Below are positions 25,727-64,000 of a DNA stretch of 64,000 nt, in pieces. The stretch's first letter is position 1; each line of letters opens with the position of its first letter. The translations under genes were made by a program, and so were the position numbers. Origin of the DNA: Minisyncoccota bacterium (lineage in GTDB: Bacteria; Patescibacteriota; Minisyncoccia; Phycocordibacterales; UBA9973); NCBI GenBank assembly GCA_028718635.1, contig JAQULK010000001.1, positions 607,834 to 671,833 on the forward strand, written 5' to 3'. A model generated the notes under the pieces. It ran no database searches. It had not been told where the DNA came from and was given only the letters and a program-made list of their open reading frames with translations.

Positions 25727-25735
25727 ATCCATACC

Positions 25736-27022: not shown

Positions 27023-27052
27023 AAAAATAGTATATATTGAAATTACATGAAT

Positions 27053-27129
27053 CCCGTACGAAATTACGGGATTTGATTATCACATTAACACTTCTACCGT
27101 GAAAAATAAATGGTAGGATTTCGTACGGG
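27053..27129. mobile_element. Start-codon-associated palindromic MITE-like element, copy 6, plus-strand orientation, variant interior
   Basis: ATGAAT-CCCGTACGAAAT ... ATTTCGTACGGG-ATGAAC. Direct repeats ATGAA at 27047-27051 and 27130-27134. Confidence 0.5.
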
Positions 27130-27585
27130 ATGAACACAAAGCTTCAAATTGTTTTTTTTATTTTGATTGGCATTATTATTCTACTCGGAATCGTTTGGGT
27201 TATCGTTACAGAAAAGCGCTTAAAAAGATTTTTCCTTGGCAAGAAAGCAAAAGATTTGGAAGACAACATCATTTCATTAGAAAATAATATAGCCGAATTA
27301 AATAAAACGAAGGACGCGATGCATAAAGATATCGCCGGAATAAACACTAAACTTAAAAAAAGCATTCGCGGACTGGAGACAATACGTTTCAATCCTTTTC
27401 CTGATCAAGGCAGTAATCAAAGTTTTGCTATTGGAATGCTTAATGAAGAAAATGACGGTTTGGTGATTTCAAGTTTATATTCTCGCGAACGAATGAGCGT
27501 ATTTGCCAAGCCCATCAAAAATGGAAAATCCGAGTACGAACTCACAGCTGAGGAAAAAGAAGTTTTGAAAAAAGCCCAAATATAA
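27130..27585 (+). CDS. DUF4446-like membrane-anchored coiled-coil protein
   Basis: N-terminal transmembrane helix, a coiled coil, then RFNPFPDQGSNQSFAIGMLNEENDGLVISSLYSRERMSVFAKPI, which resembles the DUF4446 core. Confidence 0.45.
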   Translation: MNTKLQIVFFILIGIIILLGIVWVIVTEKRLKRFFLGKKAKDLEDNIISLENNIAELNKTKDAMHKDIAGINTKLKKSIRGLETIRFNPFPDQGSNQSFAIGMLNEENDGLVISSLYSRERMSVFAKPIKNGKSEYELTAEEKEVLKKAQI

Positions 27586-29105: not shown

Positions 29106-29156
29106 TACACCTCACCCTAGCCCTCTCCTTATCAAGGAGAGGAAAAAATAAAAATT

Positions 29157-29480: not shown

Positions 29481-29505
29481 ACTTCTTGAATAGTCTTTAA
29501 AAAAA

Positions 29506-29577
29506 GGCCTGGTAGCCAAGTGGTAAGGCATTCCTCTGCAAAAGGAATATACGGCGGTTCAATTCCGCCCCAGGCCT
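29506..29577 (+). tRNA. tRNA-Cys (GCA)
   Basis: Cloverleaf: acceptor GGCCTGG/CCAGGCC, anticodon loop CTGCAAA, T-loop TTCAATT. Confidence 0.8.
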
Positions 29578-29579
29578 CA

Positions 29580-31229: not shown

Positions 31230-31243
31230 AATATTTTTCTAAA

Positions 31244-31306
31244 AGCAGAAATGGTTGTACTAGGCGCACAATCCCAACAATAAAGTTAAAATTGTTCTAG
31301 CACAAC
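31244..31306. promoter_or_regulatory. 20-bp imperfect inverted repeat pair in the recombinase upstream region; candidate operator or recombination site
   Basis: AGCAGAAATGGTTGTACTAG, 23-bp spacer, CTAGCACAACCATTTCTGCT. The arms match 19 of 20. Confidence 0.35.
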
Positions 31307-31425
31307 CATTTCTGCTAACTTTACTTAATAATAATTGTGCGCAAAGTCATTATACTACTTTTAGAAAAAAGACAAAAATTCTTTTTGTATTTAAAGCAAA
31401 TACTATGTCAAAATTGCTTCTGATT

Positions 31426-31574
31426 TCGAACCTGCTTCTTGGCGAAAAATTAGTGCGCGCAAGCGCGCCAAAAATTCTGAATTCGTTGGGGGAATTCGGC
31501 GGGAATCCTTGGGACGCGCTTCGCGCGTCCCGCATTTTGGCTTCTGAAAAACCGTCTAGTTCTATTCTGGTGCC
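31426..31574. repeat. IR1-right: inverted copy of the 149-bp repeat, including a copy of the tRNA-Leu 3'-terminal GGCACC
   Basis: Reverse complement of 29695-29843. It encodes the same recombinase C-terminal peptide on the plus strand. Confidence 0.85.
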
Positions 31575-31986
31575 TCTATTATACCAAGTTAGGACCTATT
31601 TTCAAAACAAAGTGAGGTAATCGCACGCGCGGAGCGCGTGGTGATGTGAAAGTTTTTCGTACGCTCGACGCAAAGCCCCGCCACTGCCTCGCTTCACTCG
31701 GCAACCCCAAAAAGAAAAAATGTTCCTTGCTCTTTTGATTTTCGCGGGGGGATTTTTTTCTAAAATGGAAAGGACATTTTTCTTTTTGGTGTTCTGCCTT
31801 CCAAGTATTCAGGCAGTGTGGCGGGGCTTCAATTCGGACTTCGGCAAAGCGGAAAATCTATTTTTCTGGGGGAAAGGATTTTTCCGCTTTGCCTCAGACT
31901 GTTTTTATTTTTGGCCCGCGCGCAGAAAGGGGTCTGGGGAATGAATGCGCGCGGGCTTTTGAGGCGGGGCTATTTTTTCCAATCTT
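31571..31986. repeat. IR2-left: ~415-bp GC-rich, highly structured inverted repeat; candidate structured RNA or recombination arm
   Basis: Reverse-complement identical to 36244-36657. It contains several perfect hairpins, including GGCAAAGCGGAAAATC...GATTTTCCGCTTTGCC, GCCCGCGCGC...GCGCGCGGGC and CACGCGC GGA GCGCGTG. Confidence 0.85.
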
Positions 31987-32149
31987 TAATAATCAAATGT
32001 CTTGCTTTGAGTTCAACAACCAATTTTTGTTTTTCTTTCCACTTTAGCTTGCGAACATATTCAATCGGCAAGGTTATAGAAAAGCTGTTGCCTCCGGCAA
32101 CTTTGGAAAGTTTTCTGATGTTATGATTTTGTGATTTTTGTGTTGGCAT
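31970..32149 (-). CDS. AbrB/MazE (SpoVT/AbrB swapped-hairpin) family small DNA-binding protein, 59 aa. It is not in the ORF track.
   Basis: Minus-strand translation MPTQKSQNHNIRKLSKVAGGNSFSITLPIEYVRKLKWKEKQKLVVELKARHLIIKDWKK matches the AbrB/MazE pattern K.G.S..VTIP.E....L....D.V.L...G..I.L. Confidence 0.45.
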   Translation of the reverse strand: MPTQKSQNHNIRKLSKVAGGNSFSITLPIEYVRKLKWKEKQKLVVELKARHLIIKDWKK

Positions 32150-32176
32150 AGTGGTTCATGAATACTTTCATGAGAA

Positions 32177-35100
32177 TCATTTATTTCCCATTAACTCATT
32201 TATTTTAGCTAAAGTGGTTTTGCCGACATAGCCAGTTCCTTTGATAAAACCCCATGGCACAAGAACATCCTTTACATATTTTTCTTGGAATTTGATTACT
32301 GCTTTTTTAGTGAGCAGACCGAAAAAATTGGTTTCTTTGCCAGGAGAACCAGCGCCTGAATCGGCCACTTTTGTATCTGGATCGGAATTGAGGAAAATTT
32401 GCAAGCGTTTAATATCGGCGTTTGTTTGTCTGTATTGCAAGTATTTAGTAAATGGATTGGTAAGCGACAAATTATTTGTCTGTTGCAAATTTTCCGTCGG
32501 GGTACTACTGGATTTTAGAATAATTGTACTTGAGGCAATACCTGACGATTGGCCATAGTATGTGAAGAATTTAACATAAATTTTGTATGTTCCGGCGGGA
32601 CAAGTTGGATTTTTTATCACATCAAATTTTGAGCAAAGATCAATTTGTTTGGTTGCTGAATAATTTTCTTGGCTGGCGTCATTGAAATCACCGGTCAAGG
32701 AAATTGCCATTTTTTTAACATCTGAACCAGCGTTGAAGTTGAGATTAACAATTCTGCTTGTAGTTGTACCTGCTCCAGAATTTACTAAAACTTTGAATCC
32801 GCCTGTCGGCGTTATTGGTAAATTACTCCAACCTGCTGGCATACCACCGCCTCCACACCCGCTCGTTGATTTTGTAATTGAAATTGAACTAGTTTCTGTT
32901 CCGTCACCGTTTCTATATATTACGGAGTAATCGTATGAATGACCGCAAGATAATCCGGTATCTGTCCAGGAGTTAGTTTGTATCCAGCCAGAATTGGCAC
33001 CGGAACGAGAAAAATAATATCCTGATGTTCCGCTTGTATCATTTGGAAAACTATCAACGCTCAAAGTTACACTGTTTGAATTTGATGAGGCGGAAAGATT
33101 AGTTGGAATCGGAGCTAAAGTATATCTAGACAATGAATCAGAAAAAGCGGATTCGTTTAAATTGTTATCCCGTGCTTTGACTTGATAAGTATATTGAGTA
33201 TTAGCGGAAAGTCCGGAGTCAATTAAAGAAGTTGATGATTGCCAGTCAGAAGAAGATGATCCGCCAGAGTGTCCTGTTGTTTCGTTGAACCAATATGGAG
33301 CTGAGTGTAATCCCGGGTCTGCATCAGTAGCCGTCTGAGATGTAATAGTTAATTGAGTTGTTGAATCAATAGATATAGACGAAATGCCTACATTAGTTGG
33401 CGCGCCTGTATTTTGTTCCAAAGCAAAAATGTGTGTGGAATATCCCCCAGTATAGGTAAATGTTAAATTACCCGAAGAATCTGAAAGGCATAACCCGTTG
33501 GTGCAGGTATCACCGGTAATTGCAGTTGTGGAGGCTACCCCGTCTAATTTAAATTGGTAATACTTACTCGATGCTAAATTACCAATTGTATAAATGGTAT
33601 TTGTTGCGATAGACGAGGTGGCTGTCCATTGCTTGTTCTTTGTTCCTGATGTTAGCCAAGAATCAAGAGTAACATTTATATACTCACTGTAATCAGATGA
33701 AGGCCAGCCGCCAACAGGAGAAACTGAAAAATTAGCAGATTGTGTGCTTGATGTGGCTGTAGTGTATCTATATTTTCCGTCAGAATAAATTCTGATTGAA
33801 CCAGTCGGGTCAACTAAATCTGTGCCAATAGTATATGGTGGTTGATATTCGTATGCACCAATATCGGGAGTGCCGTAAATATGGTTGCCAGAAATATCAG
33901 TGGTCAAGGAAAGGTTGGTACCGGTATCTATGCCAGGCGACAAATTTTGAAGAGAATAAATATTGCTCGAAGAATCTAGAAACAAAGGATTTGCATTAAT
34001 GCTATTAGCATCTTTTCCTGTAATAGCATTATCACTAATTAACGCCGTTTTCCACAAGCTAAAATCAGTATAATTTGTACCATTCAACGCAGATAAATGC
34101 GCACCATTAGGAGCATAATACAAGTTATTATCAATACCGACAGAAGTATAAGGTCCTGAAATTGAAACATTTTGTAAATTATTTCCGAGAGAAGCCTCCG
34201 TATAGACAAGATTATTTTTAAAGATTACTTTTTTTCCACTTGTTTGTGTATCCATGCCATGTCCATATCCTCCAGGGGCAGATGGATTATGAATAACCGT
34301 ATTGTTATAAAATGTGGATGTATTTATCGTAGATTGACCGGTAAAGTTAAGACCGTTAACATGGGCGTTTCTAACTAGGTTATAGTAATAATTATTACCT
34401 CCATTACCAGAAGTTACCCCATCGCTTATCTGACCTTCCAATAAATTGTTTCTGTAGATATTATTGGTAGCACTTGATCCAGCAATAAATATTCCGGAAC
34501 CACTCATGGTGGGGTATTCTAATAAATTCCAAGTATATGATATATTGTTACCAAAAATAGAATTGGAGTTCGCATTATTTAAAAAAACACCATATTGAAA
34601 ACTATTTGTGGTACTTGTACCGATAATATTTGTTGAGACATTGGAATTACTACTACCATTCAAATATATCCCAATAAGAGCGGCACTTGTTTTATCAGAA
34701 TTTGTGTTTGTAATAGTATTTCCCGTTATAGTGTGCGAGTTGGTGGTCACGGAGATTCCCTGACTTACTGTTCCGTTTGTCACTATTGAATTGCTGGTTA
34801 TATTAAGCGTTGTCGCTGTATCGACAGTGATACCATAATTGAAACCATTGCTCGCAGTGCTACCAATTATGTTTTGATCTATTGTACTATTGCTGGAAAC
34901 TCCAGTAATAAAAATGCCCACTAATCCAGCATTTGTTTTTGTGACATTAGAGTTGGTCATTGTATTACCACGAACAACTGTTGATGCTCCAGTGTTCACA
35001 TAAACTCCTTTTGCCCCAACCGCACTCGTAACAATTGTATTGTTTAATATCTGAGTGCCAGTCACACCACCAGTGGTGATATAAATGCCCGTGCCTAAAT

Positions 35101-35590
35101 CGTTAGTAATATCGCATCTTTGTACGATTCCGCCACTCATTGAACCCATGAAAACTAAAGCACCATTGGTATCACCTCCTCTTAAATCTAAATCCTGGAA
35201 CGTTACATTACTTTTACCGTTTGATAAAACAGCGTGGATATTCGTATCAGTTATAGCATTCAAAATTGGTTTATTTCCTGTACCATATGCTCCTGTAACT
35301 ATTGGAGTTGTTACGCCACCCTCATCGGCTGTTATATAAACATTTGAGAATGAATCTCCTCGATTGAATAATATTTCATCACCACTTACCAATACAGTAG
35401 AGGCAGACAATCCAGTCGCAGAACCGTCCCAAGGATGATGAGCCCAGGTCGTCGATATTGAAGTTCCATTGTTTGAATCTGACCCAGTAGCACTTATATA
35501 ATACGTTGTCGCACTTGCCGACTTAACAAATAAAAAGCAAGTTCCGAATATAACGAAAACAAAAAAGATTTTATAATATTTATTCAACAT
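32177..35590 (-). CDS. Giant secreted surface protein: right-handed parallel beta-helix repeats, Ig/FN3-like middle region, C-terminal peptidoglycan-binding domain
   Basis: Signal peptide. Dozens of NxTI/GxxxN beta-helix rungs with a DIGAYEY cap. C-terminal IKRLQIFLNSDPD...GLLTKKAVIKFQEKY resembles a PG_binding_1 domain. Confidence 0.7.
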   Translation of the reverse strand: MLNKYYKIFFVFVIFGTCFLFVKSASATTYYISATGSDSNNGTSISTTWAHHPWDGSATGLSASTVLVSGDEILFNRGDSFSNVYITADEGGVTTPIVTGAYGTGNKPILNAITDTNIHAVLSNGKSNVTFQDLDLRGGDTNGALVFMGSMSGGIVQRCDITNDLGTGIYITTGGVTGTQILNNTIVTSAVGAKGVYVNTGASTVVRGNTMTNSNVTKTNAGLVGIFITGVSSNSTIDQNIIGSTASNGFNYGITVDTATTLNITSNSIVTNGTVSQGISVTTNSHTITGNTITNTNSDKTSAALIGIYLNGSSNSNVSTNIIGTSTTNSFQYGVFLNNANSNSIFGNNISYTWNLLEYPTMSGSGIFIAGSSATNNIYRNNLLEGQISDGVTSGNGGNNYYYNLVRNAHVNGLNFTGQSTINTSTFYNNTVIHNPSAPGGYGHGMDTQTSGKKVIFKNNLVYTEASLGNNLQNVSISGPYTSVGIDNNLYYAPNGAHLSALNGTNYTDFSLWKTALISDNAITGKDANSINANPLFLDSSSNIYSLQNLSPGIDTGTNLSLTTDISGNHIYGTPDIGAYEYQPPYTIGTDLVDPTGSIRIYSDGKYRYTTATSSTQSANFSVSPVGGWPSSDYSEYINVTLDSWLTSGTKNKQWTATSSIATNTIYTIGNLASSKYYQFKLDGVASTTAITGDTCTNGLCLSDSSGNLTFTYTGGYSTHIFALEQNTGAPTNVGISSISIDSTTQLTITSQTATDADPGLHSAPYWFNETTGHSGGSSSSDWQSSTSLIDSGLSANTQYTYQVKARDNNLNESAFSDSLSRYTLAPIPTNLSASSNSNSVTLSVDSFPNDTSGTSGYYFSRSGANSGWIQTNSWTDTGLSCGHSYDYSVIYRNGDGTETSSISITKSTSGCGGGGMPAGWSNLPITPTGGFKVLVNSGAGTTTSRIVNLNFNAGSDVKKMAISLTGDFNDASQENYSATKQIDLCSKFDVIKNPTCPAGTYKIYVKFFTYYGQSSGIASSTIILKSSSTPTENLQQTNNLSLTNPFTKYLQYRQTNADIKRLQIFLNSDPDTKVADSGAGSPGKETNFFGLLTKKAVIKFQEKYVKDVLVPWGFIKGTGYVGKTTLAKINELMGNK

Positions 35591-35596
35591 AATTTA

Positions 35597-35932
35597 TTAT
35601 TTCTTTTGCAATACCGTCGAAACTTCAAAAATTGAGGTTTTCTTCAGTACAATTTTGTAAACACTTTCCAAAAAATCGCCACCAGCGTAACCGACAACAA
35701 ACGCTAATGCCGGAGTAAATTCACCAAGACCAAAAAAGTTTAATCCAAGTTCTTTTGTTGCAACTGCGGTCAAAAGACCAATAATGCCGGAGATAAAAAC
35801 CATAACGAAAAAATACAAAGTTTCAAATTTAGGCGTTTTGTAAGAAAACTGTTTGAAAAATCCAAACAAAGCTCTTACCATTCCTCCGCCGAATCCGGCG
35901 ATCAATATTGAGAAGTAAAATGATTCCCACAT
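35597..35932 (-). CDS. Small three-transmembrane membrane protein. It is the first gene of the surface-protein operon; a holin-like role is possible.
   Basis: Three hydrophobic helices; translationally adjacent to the giant gene. Confidence 0.3.
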   Translation of the reverse strand: MWESFYFSILIAGFGGGMVRALFGFFKQFSYKTPKFETLYFFVMVFISGIIGLLTAVATKELGLNFFGLGEFTPALAFVVGYAGGDFLESVYKIVLKKTSIFEVSTVLQKK

Positions 35933-36042
35933 AGTTTTGATAAGTTAATTGTTAATAATTAAATACAAAAAACACCGCAAAAACGGTGTTATAATTTAAG
36001 TGGAAAAGTTAAACAAACAAAAACACGGAGAGCGCGTGTTAC

Positions 36043-36062
36043 TCTCTCTCTCTCTCTCTCTC
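36043..36062. repeat. (CT)10 dinucleotide repeat in the operon upstream region
   Basis: ctctctctctctctctctct, about 110 bp upstream of the first ATG of the operon. Confidence 0.9.
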
Positions 36063-36243
36063 GATTCGTGCCGAAATTTTGTTCATAATTTTTTTGATAA
36101 TAACGTCTCCAACCATATTTGTATTATAGCAAATTTTGGTGTAAAGTGTAAATACAAAGTCAAGCTGTGAATTTCGTTTTCCCCCACCCAAAAACTAGCG
36201 GAGTAAGCGGAGGATTATCCAATATCATGAATGTATTCATGAG

Positions 36244-36657
36244 GATTGGAAAAAATAGCCCCGCCTCAAAAGCCCGCGCGCATTCATTCCCCAGACCCCT
36301 TTCTGCGCGCGGGCCAAAAATAAAAACAGTCTGAGGCAAAGCGGAAAAATCCTTTCCCCCAGAAAAATAGATTTTCCGCTTTGCCGAAGTCCGAATTGAA
36401 GCCCCGCCACACTGCCTGAATACTTGGAAGGCAGAACACCAAAAAGAAAAATGTCCTTTCCATTTTAGAAAAAAATCCCCCCGCGAAAATCAAAAGAGCA
36501 AGGAACATTTTTTCTTTTTGGGGTTGCCGAGTGAAGCGAGGCAGTGGCGGGGCTTTGCGTCGAGCGTACGAAAAACTTTCACATCACCACGCGCTCCGCG
36601 CGTGCGATTACCTCACTTTGTTTTGAAAATAGGTCCTAACTTGGTATAATAGAGGCA
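36244..36657. repeat. IR2-right: inverted copy of the ~415-bp structured repeat
   Basis: Reverse complement of 31571-31986. Confidence 0.85.
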
Positions 36658-36691
36658 CATTACGTTAGGTAAGACCCAACGTAAAAGTTTT

Positions 36692-36764
36692 GCGCCCTTA
36701 GCTCAGCTGGTAGAGCAGATCCCTCTTAAGGATAAGGTCGTTGGTTCGATCCCAACAGGGCGCA
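36692..36764 (+). tRNA. tRNA-Lys (CTT)
   Basis: Acceptor GCGCCCT/AGGGCGC, D-arm TAGCTCAGCTGGTAGAGC, anticodon loop CTCTTAA, T-loop TTCGATC. Confidence 0.8.
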
Positions 36765-36767
36765 CAT

Positions 36768-36849
36768 GCCGGGATGGCGGAATTGGTATACGCGCTAGTC
36801 TTAGGAACTAGTGGGGCAACCCTTGGGAGTTCGAGTCTCCCTCCCGGCA
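36768..36849 (+). tRNA. tRNA-Leu (TAG)
   Basis: Acceptor GCCGGGA/TCCCGGC, anticodon loop CTTAGGA, long variable arm, T-loop TTCGAGT. Confidence 0.8.
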
Positions 36850-36945
36850 CAAATATATGGGATATATTTTTGCCAGACTCGAAAGCCGGAAGCCGACGGG
36901 CTGAGGCGGGGTCGCAGGATTTTTCAGTAGAAAAATACCTGTGAC

Positions 36946-36965
36946 CGAGTCTCCCTCCCGGCACA
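36946..36965 (+). repeat. 20-bp direct repeat of the tRNA-Leu(TAG) 3' end; att-like scar
   Basis: CGAGTCTCCCTCCCGGCACA repeats 36832-36851, 95 bp downstream of the tRNA. Confidence 0.6.
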
Positions 36966-37003
36966 CTTGACATTTGTATTCATAAGTGCTATACTAAACC
37001 CGT

Positions 37004-37687
37004 ATGAATAAAATAGACACAAAATCAATAGTTATTGGGTTAGAAATACTATCAGTGTTGATGTTTAGTTTGTTGATCACACCCGCAAAAGCATTTGCAA
37101 CGCCCGGGTATGTTGACAACCCTACGCCTTTTATTTCATCCATTAGCCCAAATTCTAGCAATCCTAATCAGGGGTCAATTGTTATTGCGATTACAGGAAA
37201 TGGATTCATTCCAAGTTCAATTGCTAGAGTCAACGGTTCTGACCGCATGACTACTTTTATAGATTACTCTCATATTTTGATTAGATTAAATTCAAATGAT
37301 ACTCGCAACACTGATGGAATATACATTAATGTCTTTAATGGATTTCCAGGTGGAGGATATTCGAATGCGGAATTATTCACCATAAATAATAACAATAATA
37401 ATTCGACAACAATAACCAGAACTACCACAAACACAGTAAATAATAATACAGACAATACTTATTCAAATACGAATCAAAACACAAGTCAAACAAAAAATAC
37501 AACTACTACCGACTCAAATTCCAGCAACCTAGCAGCTACCGCTATTTTCGGATCAAACGGCTTCCTTCCTTCTGGTTTAATTCAGTGGATATTGTTTGCT
37601 ATAGTTATCTTGCTCATCATTATCTTGGTCAGAAAAATCTTCGGAGCTAGGGCAAAATACAACGAATCACCGTTAAAAAGCCCGTAA
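37004..37687 (+). CDS. Cell-surface protein with an IPT/TIG-like domain, an N/T-rich linker and a C-terminal transmembrane anchor
   Basis: Signal peptide; ISSISPNSSNPNQGSIVIAITGNGF is IPT-like; a poly-N/T tract; a C-terminal hydrophobic helix followed by basic residues. Confidence 0.5.
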   Translation: MNKIDTKSIVIGLEILSVLMFSLLITPAKAFATPGYVDNPTPFISSISPNSSNPNQGSIVIAITGNGFIPSSIARVNGSDRMTTFIDYSHILIRLNSNDTRNTDGIYINVFNGFPGGGYSNAELFTINNNNNNSTTITRTTTNTVNNNTDNTYSNTNQNTSQTKNTTTTDSNSSNLAATAIFGSNGFLPSGLIQWILFAIVILLIIILVRKIFGARAKYNESPLKSP

Positions 37688-37711
37688 GAATCCTGCCACC
37701 ATACTAAAAAA

Positions 37712-37735
37712 AGGAAGCCTTGCTTCCTTTTTTTA
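37712..37735 (+). terminator. Rho-independent terminator (bidirectional)
   Basis: A-run, AGGAAGC CTTG CTTCCT, then a T-run. Confidence 0.6.
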
Positions 37736-38008
37736 TATTTTAGTATGTATTATTTTCTCGATTGCCTTTATTCGCTTCAGGCTTGCTAAAATTTCTTCAG
37801 CTTTTACTCCGCCTTTCTTAAACTTAGTGAAATCAATTAAAGTTTTCCAAGTTCCCTCATCCCCCCACTCATCAACAGGCATAATGTTGAAAATGGGTTT
37901 TGAACGACGAACAACAGTAAAAGACTTGCCCTCTGCAATGGCATTTATATATTTTTCTGCATTTAAGCGCAGATCTTTTAAACCAATAATGCTTGTTTTC
38001 GTAGACAT
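37733..38008 (-). CDS. Phd/YefM-like antitoxin-domain protein; orphan, no adjacent toxin
   Basis: IIGLKDLRLNAEKYINAIAEGKSFTVVRRSKPIFNIMPVDEW resembles the Phd/YefM N-terminal fold. Confidence 0.35.
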   Translation of the reverse strand: MSTKTSIIGLKDLRLNAEKYINAIAEGKSFTVVRRSKPIFNIMPVDEWGDEGTWKTLIDFTKFKKGGVKAEEILASLKRIKAIEKIIHTKI

Positions 38009-38027
38009 ACGTATAAGTTTATCTTAA

Positions 38028-39045
38028 GATAACCCTGTGTCTGTCTTAGGCACAGACATTTGGCGGTTTAATTAATTGATAATCTTCCAGAAATTCATTT
38101 GGCGTTTTTCCATTTAAACCGCAATGTTCTAGATTGTTGTAATATATATTCCATCTTTTTAATTTCTTTTGCAAATCTTTGAAACTTTTAAATTTGTTTT
38201 GCTCGTAGAATTTCTCTTGGTCTTCCCGATGGCTGCGTTCCACAGTGCCATTTTGAGCTGGCTTACCGGGATCAATCAAGTAATGGATGATATTGTTCTC
38301 ACGGCAAAAAATATCCAAAGGGTGTAGGGTTTTCACCCTAACATCACTTCTTTTGTTGGTTCCTAGGTAGTAATTGGTAAAAACAACCCCATTGTCTGTT
38401 TTAATCGCTTGGATTTTGTATTTAAATATTTGCATCACTTCTTTTAAAAACAGAATCGAATGAAAATTAGTTTGTTCATCGTAAACAGCTAGATGTCTCC
38501 ATCTTGAAGCTGTATCGATGGCTGTATATTGAAAATATCTTTTGTTTGCAATACGTCCAGGAACATATTTCACGTCAATTTCTAGTAGTTCTCCTGGTTG
38601 TCTTTCGGCTTTAATATATTTGTATTTGATTTTCTTTACCCGATATTTTCGCACCAAGTTTTCCTTTTTTAGAATCTTACCGACTGTTCGTTCGTGAATT
38701 TCAATACCTTCCTTCTTTAACTGCCAGTGTATTTTGAGTGCGCACTTTTTTGTTTTCTTTCTAACCTCAACCACTCTTTCTTTCATCCAAATTGGAGTTT
38801 CGTTTTCCTGTGTTTTCGGTTCAGTTGATTTAGGTTCCAGTCCTGCTTCTCCTTTCGCTTTATAGGTTGCTACCCAGCGTTCTAGGCTTCGTTTACTGTA
38901 TGGACAAACCCCAACTGTATCAACTATTTTAACTTTCTTCTTTACAATTGGCAGCACCCACCTCAACCTCTCTTCTTTGATTGTTTTAGCCATAGATATG
39001 CTCATTCCTCCATTTTAGGAGAAACCGCCATATGTGTGTGCACAT
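38028..39045. mobile_element. IS481-family insertion sequence (single DDE transposase, imperfect terminal inverted repeats)
   Basis: Ends GCACAGACATTTGGCGGTTT (left) and AAACCGCCATATGTGTGTGC (right) match about 18 of 20 as inverted repeats around the transposase ORF. Confidence 0.55.
38046..39005 (-). CDS. IS481-family DDE transposase (rve integrase core)
   Basis: N-terminal HTH; catalytic D (ELLEIDVKYV), D (AIKTDNGVVF), E (NGTVERSH) with IS481-like spacing. Confidence 0.75.
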   Translation of the reverse strand: MSISMAKTIKEERLRWVLPIVKKKVKIVDTVGVCPYSKRSLERWVATYKAKGEAGLEPKSTEPKTQENETPIWMKERVVEVRKKTKKCALKIHWQLKKEGIEIHERTVGKILKKENLVRKYRVKKIKYKYIKAERQPGELLEIDVKYVPGRIANKRYFQYTAIDTASRWRHLAVYDEQTNFHSILFLKEVMQIFKYKIQAIKTDNGVVFTNYYLGTNKRSDVRVKTLHPLDIFCRENNIIHYLIDPGKPAQNGTVERSHREDQEKFYEQNKFKSFKDLQKKLKRWNIYYNNLEHCGLNGKTPNEFLEDYQLIKPPNVCA

Positions 39046-39254
39046 TACCTGTCAATATTGACTTTTTGGCTTTAGTATGATACAATATGAGCTGACAAAA
39101 GTTCGTCGAAAACAAAATAAAAAATAAAAAACAGAGGGTTTCTCTCTGTTGAAAAATAAAAAAGGAAATGGAAAAGAGGGCTTTTTCTCCCCTCTTCTAA
39201 AGAAAAACAAAAACTGCGCCCTAATGGCGCTCACAACAAAGAAAAGGAGACGCC

Positions 39255-40220
39255 ATGAAAGACAATCAAGAAAATGAAGAAGAAGTTGTAGTAGAAGAAG
39301 AGACAAAAGAAGGAAGAAGAAAAGAGAAAAGAAAAATAAAAGAGCAGAAAAACAGTACTCTCGACATAATACTGGCAGTTCTGTTTGTATCCATCACTAT
39401 TGCCGGATGCATTTGGGGCATTAGAATTGAGTTCCCAGGTGCTTGGGTGGCAACAACTATTCTCCTCCTTCTAGAGGGAATAGTCTTGTCGTTAAGTCTC
39501 AAAAAAATCAAAGTTGGTCACAGAGCACAATACCTGTATTTGGGCCGAAGGATAGAATACTTTGTGAAAGAAGGTTTGCATGTTGTACCGTGGCCTTTTT
39601 TTACAAAAAAAGAAATCGATTGCAGGGCGAAAACTACAACCCTAGATGAACAACACATCTTCACTAAAGATAATGTCGAAGTAAAATTGGGAAAACCATC
39701 CATAGTATCACAGGTTATAGATTTAGATCTATATCAAAATTTAGATACAGAAAACCTACCTGGGTTAATGGACGACGTAGTGGACGAAAATGTTCGCTAT
39801 AAAATAAGAAACACCCCATATGAAAAAGTTCTGGAAATGAAATTCAGTGTTGAAGAACATGACATCGAACATACTCTAGGAAATTGGGGGATAAACATCG
39901 TAAGAATAATTGTACCAAACGTCATTCCCGTAAATGAAGATTTCATTAAAGCTCAAGAGCTCAAAGTAAAAGAGGACCTTGAGCGCAAAGGACAGAGAGT
40001 GCAGGCACGACATCATGCTGATCTTATCAAATTCTTTTCTGGAACTGAAAAGTTGGGAGAAAAAGGTCCTGAAGGTCCTGGGCTTCCTGTTGAGCTAGCC
40101 TATGAGGCTGCTTTGATCCATATGGACAAGGCAGAAAAGAAAAAACTGGCGTCCAGCACTTTTGGTCTAGACGCTAACACAGTAGACACCATTACTAAAG
40201 CGGTAATGACAAGGAGGTAA
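39255..40220 (+). CDS. SPFH/band-7 (stomatin/prohibitin/flotillin-like) domain membrane protein
   Basis: N-terminal transmembrane helix. The SPFH core VPWPFFTKKEIDCRAKTTTLDEQHIFTKDNVEVKL is followed by a coiled coil. AAGGAG Shine-Dalgarno present. Confidence 0.65.
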   Translation: MKDNQENEEEVVVEEETKEGRRKEKRKIKEQKNSTLDIILAVLFVSITIAGCIWGIRIEFPGAWVATTILLLLEGIVLSLSLKKIKVGHRAQYLYLGRRIEYFVKEGLHVVPWPFFTKKEIDCRAKTTTLDEQHIFTKDNVEVKLGKPSIVSQVIDLDLYQNLDTENLPGLMDDVVDENVRYKIRNTPYEKVLEMKFSVEEHDIEHTLGNWGINIVRIIVPNVIPVNEDFIKAQELKVKEDLERKGQRVQARHHADLIKFFSGTEKLGEKGPEGPGLPVELAYEAALIHMDKAEKKKLASSTFGLDANTVDTITKAVMTRR

Positions 40221-40223
40221 GGA

Positions 40224-40670
40224 ATGATTAAAAGAACGATTTTTTTAATCGCCCTCGCTACTGCCATAATCTTTGCGGTGGTGTGGGGTTCAAATTGGAT
40301 CGCGACAAAATGGTCCAAAAAAGAAGCAAAAAAAGCGGCTGAGGAAAAGGCGAAGGAAATCGCCAAGACTCAGCCACCGACACAAACAGCTTCACGACAG
40401 AAGGTCGAGGCACTCGTTCTGGACAATGAGTGCCTCACACCCTGTAGTGGGAATATTCCTGCAGGGAGATTCAAAATCCGGACGGACGGACATCCGCTCC
40501 GGATAAAGTTCAAGGGGGTGCACGACTGGGTCGAGCACCCAGCAGAGGGAGAAGCCAAGTCTCCCTCGGGAGTAGAGCCTGGCGAGGCACAATTCGTCTC
40601 GTCAGATAAAGAAAACCCGCACGTAAAAGTGTGGGTATACAAAAAAATTACCGTTCCAGGAGGGCGGTAA
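40224..40670 (+). CDS. Membrane-anchored protein with a markedly GC-rich C-terminal part; possibly an NfeD-like partner of the SPFH protein
   Basis: N-terminal transmembrane helix, a K/E-rich linker, a C-terminal beta-rich domain. GGAGG Shine-Dalgarno. Local GC is near 55% against a ~33% background. Confidence 0.35.
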   Translation: MIKRTIFLIALATAIIFAVVWGSNWIATKWSKKEAKKAAEEKAKEIAKTQPPTQTASRQKVEALVLDNECLTPCSGNIPAGRFKIRTDGHPLRIKFKGVHDWVEHPAEGEAKSPSGVEPGEAQFVSSDKENPHVKVWVYKKITVPGGR

Positions 40671-40707
40671 ATGGCCAAAATCGCGCTGGCCACGCAAATA
40701 AAATCGA

Positions 40708-40750
40708 AAGGGCATTAACGACCTAAGTCGGAATGCCCTTTCTTACTTTC
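40708..40750 (+). terminator. Rho-independent terminator
   Basis: AAGGGCATT...AATGCCCTT stem followed by TCTTACTTTC. Confidence 0.5.
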
Positions 40751-40806
40751 TAGTGGAATATCCACCCCGTCTCGCGAGCGAGCCACCCCTGCCGAGGGGA
40801 ATTTTT

Positions 40807-41793
40807 TTACTTTTTATTTACCCTCAGTAATTCTACAACAAGAGCGACCATCTTGTCTTTGTGCCTTGGATCGCTTTCAGCTATTAAAAGAGTAATTGCA
40901 GTTAACCCTGTAGGATTGATATTGCGCGCTCCTCTTACCCTATTTTTTCTTAAAAACCAGATAAACGCAAAAGCTCCAGATCTTTTGTTGCCATCTATAA
41001 ACGGATGATTCTTCACCATAAAGTAAAGCAAATGCGCGGCTTTTTCCTCAAGTGTCTCGTAAACATCCTTCCCGCCAAAAGCCTGCATGACGTTGCCGAC
41101 AATGCCTTCGATACTTCCCCTTTCTCTTTCCGTGGCAAAAATATCCATGGCTTCAGACTTTTTTATTAATTCATTTTTAAGTTCAGAAATAGCTTTCAAA
41201 AGTTCTACGCCAGCAAGTTTTATCCTCTTTTTCGTCACACCAGCTTTTGTAAGTAAATCTTTATCATATGCATCAAGCTTCGCCCAAGTAATAGAATATT
41301 CTTTTACAAGATCTAAAATAGTTTTTGGGTCAAGAATTACATGTGTTGGCAATAATGCTTGAATATCAGAAACATTTTTCAAAAACTGATCGTAATTTTT
41401 AAGAACTACTTTTTTGTTTATGGTGTAGCCTTTTACAAGATGGTCATGTAAAGTCTTAGTCGCCCACTGACGAAATAATGTAGCTGTTTTGCTGTTAACT
41501 CTGTAGCCAACGGAAATAATCGCATCTAAATTGTAAAGTTGAGTACTATAAATTTTTCCATCGCTAGCAGTTATTCGGAATTTCCGAATAACTGATTTTT
41601 TATTCAATTCCTGATTTTTAAAAATATTTGCTAAGTGTTCGTTTATAGTTGGAACCGTAACTCCAAAAACCTCGGCTATCTGCGCTTGGGTAGCCCAGAT
41701 AGTCTCTCGAGAAAAATCTCCACGCAATTCTATCGCTCCATTTTTGGCTTGATAAATTATAAGTTTATTTTTTATTTGTTGTTTATCTTTCAT
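40807..41793 (-). CDS. RhuM-family N-terminal domain fused to a Fic/Doc (death-on-curing-like) domain
   Basis: N-terminus IIYQAKNGAIELRGDFSRETIWATQAQIAEVFGV...IRKFRITASDGKIYSTQLYNLDAIISVGYRVNS matches RhuM. The C-terminal HPFIDGNKRSGAFAFIWFL is the Fic motif HPFx[DE]GN[GK]R. Confidence 0.65.
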   Translation of the reverse strand: MKDKQQIKNKLIIYQAKNGAIELRGDFSRETIWATQAQIAEVFGVTVPTINEHLANIFKNQELNKKSVIRKFRITASDGKIYSTQLYNLDAIISVGYRVNSKTATLFRQWATKTLHDHLVKGYTINKKVVLKNYDQFLKNVSDIQALLPTHVILDPKTILDLVKEYSITWAKLDAYDKDLLTKAGVTKKRIKLAGVELLKAISELKNELIKKSEAMDIFATERERGSIEGIVGNVMQAFGGKDVYETLEEKAAHLLYFMVKNHPFIDGNKRSGAFAFIWFLRKNRVRGARNINPTGLTAITLLIAESDPRHKDKMVALVVELLRVNKK

Positions 41794-41928
41794 TCTCTTA
41801 TTTTACACTATTAACTTCTACCCAGCCAACGCACAAAGGGCGAATTTCGTTTACGAAATTCGCCCTTTATTAATTTCTATTGTATTTTCCCCTCTCCTTA
41901 ATTAAGGAGAGGGCTAGGATGAGGTGAA

Positions 41929-42258
41929 TTACTCACTCAAATGCACCGTTCCTGCTTCTGGATCTATCTCACCTTTAGATATCCCCAATGTATTCAGCAC
42001 AATTCCGAGGATAGTCCAAACTCCCATCATGATTGTTATCCCGACAACTCCCCAGATCATATGGTTTTTGCCAGTGGTTTTTTTTTCTTCGTTGGCTTGA
42101 TTTGAAAGAAATTCAAACACGCCATAAAGAAAATACACAATAGCTAAAGCAAACAAAAGTCCTATGAGTGGATTTATGATCATGGTATCAACGTTCCAAA
42201 TAAAACCATCAAAGGAAGATGAAGCCGCAAAAGCTATTTTTGTAGACAAAAAATCCAT
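41929..42258 (-). CDS. TrbC/VirB2-like pilin-fold small membrane protein, paralog 1
   Basis: Helix-loop-helix: a hydrophobic helix, a charged loop NQANEEKKTTGKNHMIWGVVG, then a second hydrophobic helix. This is the same layout as VirB2/TrbC pilins. Confidence 0.4.
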   Translation of the reverse strand: MDFLSTKIAFAASSSFDGFIWNVDTMIINPLIGLLFALAIVYFLYGVFEFLSNQANEEKKTTGKNHMIWGVVGITIMMGVWTILGIVLNTLGISKGEIDPEAGTVHLSE

Positions 42259-42376
42259 CCCGTTAGAGATAGGAAATGCAAAGCATTTCCGTAGTTATAT
42301 TACTTTTAATAAAAACTTTTAACATAAAATTATTTTCTCTATTATTTCAGATAATAAACTATATGATCTCTAACGG
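42259..42376. mobile_element. Start-codon-associated palindromic MITE-like element, copy 3 (variant interior)
   Basis: CCCGTTAGAGAT...ATCTCTAACGGG. ATGGAT direct repeats at 42253-42258 and 42377-42382 (minus sense). Confidence 0.55.
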
Positions 42377-42395
42377 GATCCATACTTTATTTAAT

Positions 42396-42779
42396 TTATT
42401 GATTTAGTGTGGGTAAAATAACATTAACATCATTGCTGCCAGTAAGACCAAAAGTATTGGTTAAAATATTTACAAGACCCCACAAAGCTACGATAACCGC
42501 AAAACCGATAATGCCGTAAATCACTCTATCTCTACCTTTTTTCTTTGCTTCTTCGTCACTTCCGATCATATAAGAAACAACTCCCCATACAAACCAAACT
42601 ACAGCTAAGGCGATCAAAACTGGAACAACAGCGTTAAGAAGTTGTCCTATTTTACACAACACTGAACCTATGTCTGTAATTGTTCCTGCATTACAATTAC
42701 CACCAAAAGTCGCCGCAAATGCAGCAACAGGCGCTAAACTTGAAACAAAACCTGTCAATACGATTAATTTCTTTTTCAT
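42396..42779 (-). CDS. TrbC/VirB2-like pilin-fold small membrane protein, paralog 2
   Basis: Signal peptide, a cysteine pair, then LNAVVPVLIALAVVWFVWGVVSYMIGSDEEAKKKGRDRVIYGIIGFAVIVALWGLVNIL. Confidence 0.45.
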   Translation of the reverse strand: MKKKLIVLTGFVSSLAPVAAFAATFGGNCNAGTITDIGSVLCKIGQLLNAVVPVLIALAVVWFVWGVVSYMIGSDEEAKKKGRDRVIYGIIGFAVIVALWGLVNILTNTFGLTGSNDVNVILPTLNQ

Positions 42780-42895
42780 CCCGTTAGAAGCAGGTCGCGA
42801 TCTTAATTAATTTTAAAATCTATAAAATCAGACCCACTAAATTTATACTTATAATAATTTCCCGACTATAAACCGTGACCGCGGCTTCTAACGGG
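42780..42895. mobile_element. Start-codon-associated palindromic MITE-like element, copy 4
   Basis: CCCGTTAGAAGCAGGTCGCGATC...GTGACCGCGGCTTCTAACGGG. ATGAA direct repeats. Confidence 0.6.
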
Positions 42896-42943
42896 ATTCA
42901 TAACCCCAATAATTATACCTTCTCTAAAAAATCAAAGCAAATT

Positions 42944-44543: not shown

Positions 44544-45833
44544 TTATTTTAATAATAATAATTGCAATTTAGTATTCGCGTCCTTGACCGCATCTGCTAC
44601 TGATAAATTGTTAGAAATCACCGCATTGGTCATCACGCCGAAAATATTGTCAGTGTCTTTCGGCGAAGGATCGAGCCAGCTTTTCCCATACAATGCTGAG
44701 CTATAGAAAATAGGAGAAAAGGCATCTTGAGGTTTGACGGCGAGCAAGTCCCGGCGCGCTGGAGGCACGCCCGTTGCCACGGCAAACTTTGAAGCAAAAT
44801 CCGAAGTCGCCATCTGGCTCGCTGCCAGGAAGGCTGTGCTGATATTTTTTGAAAAAGAAGAAATAGCAATTCCGGTCACCCTTGCTCTAGTGGTTTTAAA
44901 AGTGGCATCTCTGATCTGAGGCATCCCCGCGACAAAGAAATTTTGATTAGGATTTCTTTTTACTAGGGACTGCAGCTCGGAGGCATAGCCGAAATAAAAA
45001 GCTAAATCCTCCCGAGAAAAAGCGTCGTCAGAATTAGGAAATGATTTATTCCAAGAATATGCAGGATTGTTCGGATCTGCAAAATCCGTATAGAATTTTA
45101 ACATTGAAGGCAAATTGAAATTTCCAATTGAAGAATCTAAGGTCGAACCCAAAACTCCGTCCGTCTCTTTCACGATGGGGTTGCCAGCTTGCATAAAAAG
45201 AGTAGCCAGGATGTCTTTGAAATGAATGATGTTTGAAGAATATCCAAAGGCTATAGCGCTTTTTATTATTTTATTTGAATCATCTTTTTTTGTAAGGAGA
45301 GGCGCGACTTTCGCCACATCATCCCAGTAAGCCGGAGGATAGACGACTCCATTCGCATCAAGCATGCTCCTGTTGTAATACATCATAAGCGGATCAATAG
45401 AGATTGGAAAAGCTAAAATTCCGTTCTTTGTTAAAAAGACTTCTCCTGCGCCGGCAAAATTATTTTTAAATAAAGACAGAGAATAGCTCTGATACGGAAT
45501 GGTGAAAATTTTATCTGTGTAATGAAAAACCAAATTGTCAGGCAAAAAAAACATATCCGGTCCTGTTCCAGAAGCGGCTGCCTCGAGTAAATCTTGATCA
45601 AAAGTATCAGCAGATTTTTGCACATAAGTGACAGAAAAAGTAGTATTAGCATTATTAAAATCCTTCATTACGGATGACATCGTCGCCTCAGGCACTGTTC
45701 CCCATAAAACTACATCGCCCAGACTGCCCGCGCCGCCTTTGCCTATTGGAATAGCGCCAGAAAAAACCAAAATACCCAAAATACCTGCAGCAATAAATAT
45801 GATTAAAATGATTAGTTTAAAATTTCCTTTCAT
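44544..45833 (-). CDS. Extracellular solute-binding-protein-like (SBP family 1 type) membrane-anchored protein
   Basis: N-terminal transmembrane anchor followed by a periplasmic-binding-protein-like domain (GTGPDMFFLPDN, multiple W/Y-rich sugar-binding-type segments). Confidence 0.4.
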   Translation of the reverse strand: MKGNFKLIILIIFIAAGILGILVFSGAIPIGKGGAGSLGDVVLWGTVPEATMSSVMKDFNNANTTFSVTYVQKSADTFDQDLLEAAASGTGPDMFFLPDNLVFHYTDKIFTIPYQSYSLSLFKNNFAGAGEVFLTKNGILAFPISIDPLMMYYNRSMLDANGVVYPPAYWDDVAKVAPLLTKKDDSNKIIKSAIAFGYSSNIIHFKDILATLFMQAGNPIVKETDGVLGSTLDSSIGNFNLPSMLKFYTDFADPNNPAYSWNKSFPNSDDAFSREDLAFYFGYASELQSLVKRNPNQNFFVAGMPQIRDATFKTTRARVTGIAISSFSKNISTAFLAASQMATSDFASKFAVATGVPPARRDLLAVKPQDAFSPIFYSSALYGKSWLDPSPKDTDNIFGVMTNAVISNNLSVADAVKDANTKLQLLLLK

Positions 45834-45949
45834 CCCGTTAGAGACAGGTCGCGATCTTCGCTACCTGTGAATTATTGTTAATATAGTTGATCGTCATAAA
45901 ATTATTGATTTATTTATTATATTACTTCGTGACCGCGGTCTCTAACGGG
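45834..45949. mobile_element. Start-codon-associated palindromic MITE-like element, copy 5
   Basis: CCCGTTAGAGACAGGTCGCGATC...GTGACCGCGGTCTCTAACGGG. ATGAA direct repeats. Confidence 0.6.
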
Positions 45950-45951
45950 AT

Positions 45952-62632: not shown

Positions 62633-62659
62633 AAATAAATTATATCACAAACAAAAAAA

Positions 62660-62690
62660 TACCAAGGGTTCCCCTTGGTATTTTTTTGTT
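62660..62690. terminator. Bidirectional terminator hairpin. It shares its sequence with the palindrome inserted in iscS at 25854-25900.
   Basis: A-run, TACCAAGGG TTC CCCTTGGTA, then a T-run. Confidence 0.55.
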
Positions 62691-63040
62691 GCTGTTGTTT
62701 GTTTTGTTTCGTTCTTATAACTTAAGAGTCTTTCCTCTCTGTCAATATATCTTTTTAAGTCCACAACATATTTAGACTATTGTGTCGTCAATTGAGCGAC
62801 ACAATACCGACTCAATATATCCAACCTCTCCGAGGTCAGTTTTCGTTTTGAGACGAGAAACTCAATTCTATAAAATTTCTTTCATAAAACTGGGACGTTT
62901 TTCAAATTGAATTATTCCACGACCAGCTTCCGCTAGCCGTGCCTTGTTACGACTTAGTCCCTGTCACCGAGCTTACCTTAGGACCCACTTATGCGGATAC
63001 TTCGGGTACTCCCGGCTCCCTTGACTTGACGGGCGAATAC

Positions 63041-63905
63041 TTTCGTTAAACTACGAATTTGTGTTCCCACCGAACGGACGGATTTCCCGTATTCGGCGAG
63101 CTCTAATGCATGTGTTGTTTTAAGGAATACAACTTCTTTAATCCAGATTCTTTTAAATGTATACCATTATCAATCATCGAAAACATTTTGCAAAATATAT
63201 CGAAATCTTTCTTTTTTGAAGGAAATTTCAATATGTGTTTCTTGAAAAATGGAATTATGACTGATTTTAGGTCGTTTCTATTGTAAACTTCATATCTATA
63301 ACAATTTTGATGATTGGGACGCGTATCTTTTTGAAAATACACACTGCCACAACCAAAGAAATTTTTTAATTGATATAAAATCTTTTTATCTTTCTCAACA
63401 AGTTTCAAATAAAATTTTGGTTCTATTTTAACTCTCCGAGAATGAGAAACTTTAGAAGGATTTCGAACGTAAACAGTAAAACTGCCTTCGCCATCCACTA
63501 AACCTATAATGTAATCTGGGTTAATGTTTTGCATAGAGTGAATACCTTCCCTTGACATAAGGTCGAGGTACTATGATTCAGCTGACTTCTGACGCTGCGT
63601 AAGTTTAATTATATCATATCTTTCGAAATGACAACAACATCAGATCTCCACAGGTCACTTAAAATTCTTTTCCAAACATCCCAAACGAGCTTTTCTACGA
63701 GTTTTCCCTACCCTCACCACCCACTAGTAGGTCAACTGACTCTTTTTTATGTCGGGCTGCTCTTTGTTTCCAGATCCTCCACCATTTACCTCGCGGTAAA
63801 AGGCTATCTTTCTACTACGCTTCGATTACGAATCGAAGGAATGGATTTAAACCATTTAGAAAATTAAGCTGCTGCGCGCTTTTATTGTGAGTACAAGACT
63901 TGAGA
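63041..63905 (-). mobile_element. Intron (group I type presumed) inside the 16S rRNA gene, carrying a LAGLIDADG homing-endonuclease ORF
   Basis: The exon sequence CTTGTAC / CGCCCGTC is split by ~860 bp of non-rRNA sequence that contains the endonuclease ORF on the same strand. Confidence 0.65.
63103..63558 (-). CDS. LAGLIDADG homing endonuclease (intron-encoded)
   Basis: IIGLVDGEGSF motif; ~150-aa single-motif LAGLIDADG layout. Confidence 0.75.
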   Translation of the reverse strand: MSREGIHSMQNINPDYIIGLVDGEGSFTVYVRNPSKVSHSRRVKIEPKFYLKLVEKDKKILYQLKNFFGCGSVYFQKDTRPNHQNCYRYEVYNRNDLKSVIIPFFKKHILKFPSKKKDFDIFCKMFSMIDNGIHLKESGLKKLYSLKQHMH

Positions 63906-63952
63906 ACGTATTCACCGCAGTTTAGCTGACCTGCGATTACTAGCAATTCCAG

Positions 63953-63988
<36 letters not shown>

Positions 63989-64000
63989 AGGGCCACTTTT

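Follow-up and report, generated by a model that had tools for sequence, protein, structure and literature searches.

This analysis concerns translation initiation as it can be read from a 64-kb stretch of DNA (hereafter the window) belonging to the Parcubacteria/Paceibacteria lineage of the candidate phyla radiation. From position 64000 downward, the minus strand of the window carries the 3′ part of a 16S rRNA gene (Rfam SSU_rRNA_bacteria match), the tail of which was found to lack CCUCC, the anti-Shine-Dalgarno (anti-SD) sequence. The genes of the window, 58 in a set based on open reading frames (ORFs) and with functions matching those listed in an earlier inspection of the sequence, exhibit no general SD signal. 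Many of them have a promoter element placed immediately before the start codon, three have SD-like motifs, and seven are preceded by a hairpin-forming element inserted at the start codon. The features of the 16S rRNA gene are as follows.

63886–64000, minus strand: 16S rRNA exon 1, partial, the window end cutting off the rest (Rfam SSU_rRNA_bacteria, 96.9 bits; pairwise alignment to Escherichia coli, reaching approximately E. coli position 1399).
63037–63885, minus strand: intron of approximately 850 nt, boundaries approximate (break in the 16S alignment; site at approximately E. coli position 1399/1400).
63103–63558: LAGLIDADG homing-endonuclease ORF inside the intron (Pfam LAGLIDADG_1, E 2.3e-17).
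62905–63036, minus strand: 16S rRNA exon 2, comprising helix 44, helix 45 and the 3′ tail (covariance-model positions 1386–1533, 83.5 bits, E 1.3e-24).
62955–62942, minus strand: conserved 16S segment AAGTCGTAACAAGG (also written AAGUCGUAACAAGG).
62918–62941, minus strand: helix 45, CACGGCUAGC / GGAA loop / GCUGGUCGUG (sequence, E. coli alignment and covariance model).
62903–62917, minus strand: 3′ tail GGAAUAAUUCAAUUU on the anti-SD positions, without CCUCC (sequence, E. coli alignment and covariance model).

At approximately 63036 the 16S sequence resumes with CGCCCGUCA, followed by helix 44, and after helix 45 it continues as GGAAUAAUUCAAUUU, whereas GGAUCACCUCCUUA is found in E. coli and in bacteria generally. 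As the intron disturbed a first covariance-model scan of the whole gene, exon 2 was searched alone against the Rfam SSU_rRNA_bacteria model, an alignment that had been proposed together with the original prediction. Model positions 1521–1533 (GAUcACCUCCUUu) were aligned with high posterior probability to GAAUAAUUCAAUU, which occupies the anti-SD positions and ends at 62905. The claim that the tail has no CCUCC is therefore confirmed by the sequence itself, the E. coli alignment and the covariance model. The accompanying claim that no CACCTCC lies downstream was also confirmed, as a pattern search allowing up to 3 mismatches found no GGATCACCTCCTT-like sequence near the 16S gene. With regard to the intron, the Rfam search gave no group I match and only a sub-threshold group-II-D1D4-1 match (32.3 bits against a cut-off of 35 bits) at 63543–63635.

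The 16S tail is followed by a trailer and by an unrelated gene.

62689–62902, minus strand: conserved 16S 3′ trailer, near-identical in the window and in the related loci L125, L126 and L127.
62837–62823, minus strand: trailer hairpin GACCUC-GGA-GAGGUU, conserved in the window, L125, L126, L127 and L054.
62653–62680, minus strand: intrinsic-terminator-like hairpin and T run closing the 16S transcription unit (from sequence; position conserved in relatives).
62639–62647, minus strand: extended −10 element TGATATAAT, 6 nt before the ATG (62632) of the ddl-like gene, an example of a leaderless-type promoter, with the same arrangement in L125, L126 and L117.

The trailer, approximately 215 nt between the tail and the terminator-like hairpin, is conserved nearly as strongly as the rRNA and gave only noise against Rfam. 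Its 3′ part, GAACGAAACAAAACAAACAACAGCAA (62714–62689), is complementary to the 16S 5′ leader of L127 (TTGCTGTTTTTTGTTTTGTTTCGTTC), which suggests a processing stem. The next gene is ddl-like according to its Pfam match and is not a 23S rRNA gene, so that the 16S gene is unlinked from 23S.

Relatives were scanned with one genome per species and GGGACUAAGUCGUAACAAGG as the query, which returned 120 loci. Nearly all of these end in GGAUCACCUCCUU, whereas a Parcubacteria/Paceibacteria subset has the tail of the window or near variants of it. The tail GGAAUAAUUCAAUUUGAAA, identical to that of the window, was found in L117 (Nomurabacteria), L054 and L102, and near variants were found in L022 (GGAACAAUUCAAUUG), L026 (GGAUUAAUUCAAUUG), L098 (GGAUUAAUUAAUUUU) and L088 (GGAUCAUUUAAUUUU). 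Three further relatives, L125, L126 and L127, which were reached through the neighbouring ddl-like gene, also have the identical tail, so that at least 10 related Paceibacteria/Nomurabacteria contigs show an identical or graded tail. Helix 45 of the window is identical to that of the Nomurabacteria locus L117, and the gene order is shared with Nomurabacteria and Paceibacterota contigs; together with the missing CCUCCU motif, this places the window among the Parcubacteria/Paceibacteria that have no anti-SD. A compensatory variant of helix 45, CACGGGUAGC/GCUGCUCGUG, occurs in relatives.

These relatives also bear on the caveat, raised in the original prediction, that an intron which had escaped recognition might hide the true terminus. 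A CCUCC-bearing 3′ piece could be located elsewhere if another intron, fragmentation of the rRNA or an error of assembly had separated it from the gene; the same 16S already holds one intron of approximately 850 nt, and an ACCUC pentamer lies 67 nt past the tail end, in the conserved trailer hairpin. Nevertheless, the tail matches the anti-SD positions one-to-one in the covariance model, and the intron-less, full-length 16S genes of L125 and L127, two close relatives from independent assemblies, match model positions 1–1533 at 1358–1364 bits and end in the identical tail. Neither CCUCC nor CUCCUU occurs in the full 16S and trailer of L127. The trailer ACCUC, the sole anti-SD-like pentamer of the region, is paired with GAGGU in the hairpin and is absent from the trailer of L117. 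Given that relatives also show stepwise substitutions at the anti-SD positions themselves, we set the caveat aside and consider a hidden terminus extremely unlikely.

The variants form a graded series, from GGAUCACCUCCUUU in other lineages of the candidate phyla radiation through GGAUCAUUUAAUUU (L088), GGAUUAAUUAAUUU (L098) and GGAUUAAUUCAAUU (L026) to GGAAUAAUUCAAUUU. As the steps fall exactly at the anti-SD positions, the sequences indicate that the anti-SD was lost in place by point substitutions, from CCUCC to a U/A-rich sequence, with the length of the tail kept. The new tail is conserved like core rRNA although the Ddl proteins of these genomes are only 62–66% identical, which argues that it is under some constraint. 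Separately, four Peribacteria loci (L011, L031, L032 and L033) were found to have 16S tails with altered anti-SD cores, GGAACAUCUCCUU, GGAACACUUCCUU and GGAACAACUCCUU, in place of CACCUCC, apparently a second and distinct way in which members of the candidate phyla radiation have departed from the canonical anti-SD.

The upstream regions of the genes are in agreement with such a tail. An SD core of at least 4 nt within 20 nt upstream of the start was found in 11 of the 58 genes, which equals the random background of 19%, and rpsI, rplM, rpoA, rpsM, typA, clpB, gyrA, secA, rpsA and infB have no SD, as originally stated. SD matches of at least 6 nt were found in 4 of the 58 genes, against a background of 1.5%. 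The GGAG/GAGG/AGGA core precedes 9% of the window ORFs, compared with 46–76% in the E. coli control. The mean duplex energy of positions −20 to −3 with the canonical anti-SD ACCUCCUUA was −0.85 kcal/mol in the window, compared with −4.96 kcal/mol in a 50-kb E. coli region processed with the same crude ORF caller and −6.88 kcal/mol at annotated E. coli starts, 76% of which have a core motif. The energy profile of the upstream regions showed no dip near −10, and the purine-rich motif complementary to the 16S tail that canonical SD:anti-SD initiation would place 5–10 nt upstream of the starts was not enriched there. The annotated E. coli control was used instead of a comparison between relatives with and without an anti-SD, as the sample of the latter was small and the crude ORF calls were unreliable on high-GC controls (7% for Actinobacteria).

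A retuned ribosome, in which the new tail AAUAAUUCAAUU pairs with a new A/U-rich equivalent of the SD upstream of genes, would account for the conservation of the tail and would suit the A/T-rich upstream regions. Pairing of the upstream regions with the new tail was nevertheless no better than that of shuffled sequences (z = +0.5 to +0.6) or of regions 40–60 nt upstream, and the pairing energy had no positional dip, which makes this explanation very unlikely.

With regard to the start contexts, a sharp promoter signal was observed. The distance between the end of a TAnAAT-type −10 box, in many cases extended (TGnTAnAAT), and the ATG is exactly 6 nt in 9 genes and exactly 8 nt in 3 genes, while every other distance accounts for 0–2 genes, and the same peak at 6–8 nt was found in 370 ORFs of related metagenome contigs. 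The window thus exhibits the −10 element at a fixed distance of approximately 6–8 nt upstream of the start codon that characterizes leaderless genes. The 58 genes were divided into 17 of leaderless type, for which a looser rule was applied (−10 box 5–9 nt before the start codon), 15 that overlap the upstream gene or lie within 20 nt of it, 7 that follow a copy of the hairpin element, 3 with an SD-like motif and 16 unclassified. The ddl-like gene (62632) and secA (61189) are among those of leaderless type. The 15 overlapping or abutting genes are consistent with translational coupling. No papers on leaderless initiation in Paceibacteria or Patescibacteria were found in the open-access literature.

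A ribosome that has no CCUCC would choose its start sites without SD:anti-SD pairing. First genes with a −10 box 6–8 nt before the ATG would be transcribed from the start codon itself, giving leaderless mRNAs whose initiation depends on the 5′ end, and downstream genes that abut or overlap the preceding gene would be read by termination-reinitiation coupling. The original proposal of SD-independent initiation in the host is well supported, given that the anti-SD is absent, SD motifs are not enriched and the leaderless-promoter signal is sharp.

Three genes, all on the plus strand, depart from this pattern, as had been noted before.

7302–7307, plus strand: SD-like AAGGAG, 6 nt before the ATG of 7314–8567 (lineage-specific 417-aa protein); conserved in L252, absent in L121 and L251.
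39244–39249, plus strand: SD-like AAGGAG, 5 nt before the ATG of the SPFH/Band-7 gene 39255–40220; GGAG core kept before the orthologues in L123, L130, L129 and L253.
40211–40217, plus strand: SD-like AAGGAGG, 6 nt before the ATG of 40224–40670 (membrane partner of SPFH); conserved in all four orthologues.

The strong SD-like sites, AAGGAG or AAGGAGG 5–6 nt before the ATG, were found as described. The label "GC-anomalous" that had been given to all three genes holds for 40224–40670 alone (GC 0.503, z 3.4; third codon position, z 3.8), and does not hold for 7314–8567 (z 1.4) or 39255–40220 (z 0.5). The further claim, that these genes are of recent foreign origin, would make them imports from SD-using organisms whose motifs are relics that have not yet decayed. 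The GC content of the partner gene (0.50, against 0.37 for the window) would agree with import, as would the IS (insertion sequence) transposase, the antitoxin and the Fic/RhuM gene that flank the SPFH pair in the window.

The distribution and the surroundings of the genes argue otherwise. For 7314–8567, 22 homologues were detectable, and every one with a named source is from Paceibacteria, Nomurabacteria or Patescibacteria. The Nomurabacteria orthologue is likewise flanked by the FtsA-like gene and alaS, with its orientation unchanged, and the order IF-1, 425-aa gene, FtsA-like gene, 7314–8567 gene, AlaRS, MgtC and MnmA is common to the window and a Nomurabacteria genome; overall, the order around 7314–8567 is the same in two of three relatives. 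Around the SPFH pair it is the same in all relatives examined: IF-2, RbfA, a TIG-domain gene, SPFH, its partner and pilins follow one another in L123, L129, L130, L253 and one further contig. The sole difference between the window and L123 at the pair is extra mobile DNA, consisting of a serine-recombinase island, the antitoxin, the IS transposase and Fic/RhuM, and the mobile genes of the window (serine recombinase, IS transposase and Fic/RhuM) have no SD. In orthologues that are 43–74% identical, the motif is kept within a spacer that has otherwise diverged. The composition of two of the three genes is ordinary, and the partner gene is GC-rich relative to its own locus in L129 and L130 too, which suggests a trait intrinsic to the gene and not a mark of import. 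Recent import is thus not borne out; we reject a foreign origin for two of the three genes and regard it as doubtful for the third, and as an explanation of the motifs it deserves very little credence. A 150-aa gene with an SD in L088 was considered as a homologue of 40224–40670 and proved on comparison not to be one.

The mobile DNA that is absent from the syntenic region of L123 lies within window positions 29500–41800. It includes the serine recombinase (29580–31229), beside tRNA-Cys and tRNA-Leu genes, followed by the gene of a 1137-aa beta-helix protein, and the 3′ end of tRNA-Leu recurs near 36954. The antitoxin and the rve-type IS transposase (37733–39005) lie between the TIG gene and SPFH, and the Fic/RhuM gene (40807–41793) follows the partner gene.

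The SD-like motifs would therefore have to be accounted for on vertically inherited genes of the lineage. Before SPFH, the motif, spacer and start codon read GAAAAGGAGACGCC-ATG in the window, AAAAAGGAGAAAGTC-ATG in L123, GCAAAGGAGGATGTC-ATG in L130, GCGAGGAGAAAAACAT-ATG in L129 and AAAAAGGAGAATAAAA-ATG in L253, the remainder of the spacer having diverged between genomes. Before the partner gene, the corresponding sequences are AAGGAGGTAAGGA, AAGGAGGTAGTA, AAGGAGATAGTATAA, AAGGAGGAGACC and GAGGAGATAGG, in the same order. AAGGAG(G) is thus located 5–10 nt before both genes of the operon in five of five genomes, where the chance of a GGAG in the slot is approximately 0.023 per site. The motif of the partner gene lies inside the last SPFH codons (…AGG AGG TAA); the Arg-Arg-stop ending is common to three of the four orthologues, and AGG, a minority arginine codon (12.6% of the arginine codons of the window), occupies the overlap in four genomes (window, L123, L130 and L253). 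L123 and L125 are parts of one 377,753-bp contig, and the 16S of L125 has the tail without an anti-SD, so that at least two genomes without an anti-SD keep the motifs of the SPFH operon. In the 7314–8567 family, AAGGAG is shared by the window and L252, and L121 and L251 do not have it.

The motifs of the SPFH operon would then be kept by selection for a reason other than pairing with this 16S tail. A residual SD reader serving a few genes such as this operon might take the form of a canonical 16S encoded by a second copy, of a fraction of the ribosomes retaining the trailer ACCUC, or of a protein that binds AAGGAG. The recurrence of the motif before both operon genes, the minority AGG codon at the overlapping arginine and the conservation of the trailer hairpin GACCUC/GAGGUU in five loci would all fit such a reader. 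Genomes of the candidate phyla radiation usually have one rRNA operon, however, and neither the window nor the 16S of relatives yielded an RNA with CCUCC. The trailer ACCUC is engaged in base pairing and does not occur in L117. We therefore judge a residual reader of this kind unlikely. A related and only slightly less unlikely idea is that a textbook AAGGAG(G) is under purifying selection, in five genomes for the SPFH operon and in two for the 7314–8567 family, and that something besides the 16S tail reads it, such as specialized ribosomes keeping the trailer ACCUC or a trans-acting RNA or protein.

Taken together, the data favour, with a probability of roughly 0.8, an in-place loss of the anti-SD accompanied by SD-independent starts, leaderless or coupled, and by SD-like motifs on vertically inherited genes. 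Several points weigh against this interpretation. Sixteen of the 58 genes fall outside all start classes, and some start codons may be mis-called. Both the transcription starts and the mature 3′ end of the 16S rRNA are deduced from sequence. The window covers 64 kb of a 672-kb contig, and a second 16S copy could be present elsewhere. Finally, a ribosome that is blind to SD motifs does not explain why AAGGAG(G) is conserved ahead of the SPFH operon in five genomes, of which one is shown to share the anti-SD-less tail.

Two palindromic hairpins of the window, at approximately 29125–29145 and 41890–41915, share the stem CC(C)TCTCCTT / AAGGAGAGG(G), in which an SD-like strand pairs with an anti-SD-like strand. 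They lie downstream of infB and of a pilin gene, respectively, and are probably terminators.

The hairpin element found at start codons is present in the window in seven copies, each preceding a gene, and in one copy in the relative L117.

10462–10578, minus strand: intact copy.
25648–25727, minus strand: intact copy.
27052–27130, plus strand: intact copy.
42258–42378, minus strand: intact copy.
42779–42896, minus strand: intact copy.
45833–45950, minus strand: intact copy.
17794–17862, minus strand: degenerate copy.
Approximately 5015–5093 in L117: one copy, behind TGTATAAT-N7-ATG.

The element is 69–121 nt long with an A/T-rich interior, and its last base is the A of the ATG of the gene. Its terminal inverted repeats are perfect over at least 10 nt (TCCCGTTAGAAGCCGCGGTC… / TCCCGTTAGA… or TCCCGTACGA…), with predicted stems of 13–22 bp, and it is predicted to fold into a long hairpin with z values of −3.9 to −6.3 relative to shuffled sequence. 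On either side of each copy stands a direct repeat (TGAA or TGGA, once TGCAA), which implies that the start codon has been duplicated, giving the order −10 box, 6–8 nt, ATGRA, element, TGRA and remainder of the ORF. Three orthologous sites are empty in L123 (…ATTAC-ATGAACACA, …GAAAT-ATGGATTTT and …AAATT-ATGAAAAAG), which argues for real insertions with a 4-bp target duplication. With its terminal inverted repeats, small non-coding body, target-site duplication and empty sites in relatives, the element has the properties of a miniature inverted-repeat transposable element. It matched no Rfam family beyond noise, and no paper on it was found in the open-access literature.

A metagenome scan with one 14-nt end sequence gave at least 120 loci, and the matches listed include 63 complete copies, to which the following counts refer. 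An ATG stands at the right junction in 56 of the 63, which is partly built in, as the final A of the element meets a duplication whose first bases are TG. In 53 copies the element is directly followed by an ORF of at least 60 codons, an ATG is also present at the left junction in 42, and an exact 4-bp repeat, mostly TGAA, is found in 40. A short frame begins at the upstream ATG, 4–13 codons long in the six intact copies of the window and 16 codons long in L117; it starts with MNPVR… or MDPVR… in all but one case, and its stop is always inside the element. Insertion at the start codon would be tolerated because a 5′-terminal AUG and an intact ORF remain, and the genes behind the element may be expressed through reinitiation after the short frame has been translated, or may need the hairpin to be processed. 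The window encodes two transposases, an IS200-like Y1 transposase (15065–15745, minus strand; Pfam Y1_Tnp, E 3.9e-6), which has a leaderless-type promoter, and an rve transposase (38046–39005). The end sequence of the element was found nowhere in the window besides the elements themselves, and the IS200-like enzyme is a possible, so far unsupported, candidate for the mobilizer.

SD:anti-SD pairing is the textbook means of start-codon choice in bacteria, and outright loss of the anti-SD is rare. Among the Parcubacteria, the motif CCUCCU was reported in only 48%, and its absence matches to a large extent that of ribosomal protein uL1 (Tsurumaki et al. 2022, RNA 28:1041, PMC9297842). The window belongs to the same clade and has the same motif missing, and the loss described here is a further instance of this published clade-level trait. 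In the parts of that survey that deal with the motif, its absence is recorded without a replacement sequence or a mode of initiation, and they make no mention of the in-place series, the leaderless promoter signal, the residual SD-like motifs or the start-codon element; no other paper on these was found in the open-access literature. Paceibacteria were also reported in 2025 to be without rplA and der, with rbfA kept (PMC12641178). An rbfA gene is present in the window, and no rplK-rplA locus was found in these 64 kb, which says nothing of the rest of the genome. Sporadic loss of the anti-SD has also been described outside this clade, among others in reduced endosymbionts (Lim et al. 2012 and Amin et al. 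2018, as cited in PMC9297842). The present case resembles these in the rare loss from 16S and in the small, A/T-rich genome, and differs from them in being a clade-wide state of an environmentally widespread lineage with a strongly conserved replacement tail.

Two other groups of bacteria offer a comparison. In Bacteroidota, initiation is SD-independent and CCUCC is kept in the 16S but sequestered; most genes have no SD and a few keep one. The genes described here are similar in this respect, whereas CCUCC itself is gone, so that un-masking cannot explain an occasional use of SD motifs. Mycobacterium and Deinococcus are rich in leaderless genes, keep the canonical anti-SD and use the SD for leadered genes; a study on leaderless-rich bacteria of this kind, Cortes et al. 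2013, is cited in PMC12641261. The −10 box at a fixed short distance before the start, which implies transcripts beginning at the AUG, is shared with these bacteria, whereas the canonical anti-SD is absent here.

To the published survey, the present analysis adds a tail that was rewritten in place and is conserved, a leaderless promoter spacing, a large number of coupled genes and the finding that no new complementary motif has arisen. In these genomes, gene finders that depend on the SD will assign starts wrongly. Of most interest for further work are the conserved SD-like motifs and the start-codon element. Motifs kept under selection without a reader, and a mobile hairpin placed at the start codon, would make start-site selection without the SD testable once transcript data or a culture are at hand. 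If AAGGAG were indeed read by something other than the 16S tail, these motifs and the start-codon element would together provide a natural system for studying how starts are selected without the SD, including initiation that depends on the 5′ end followed by reinitiation across a hairpin.

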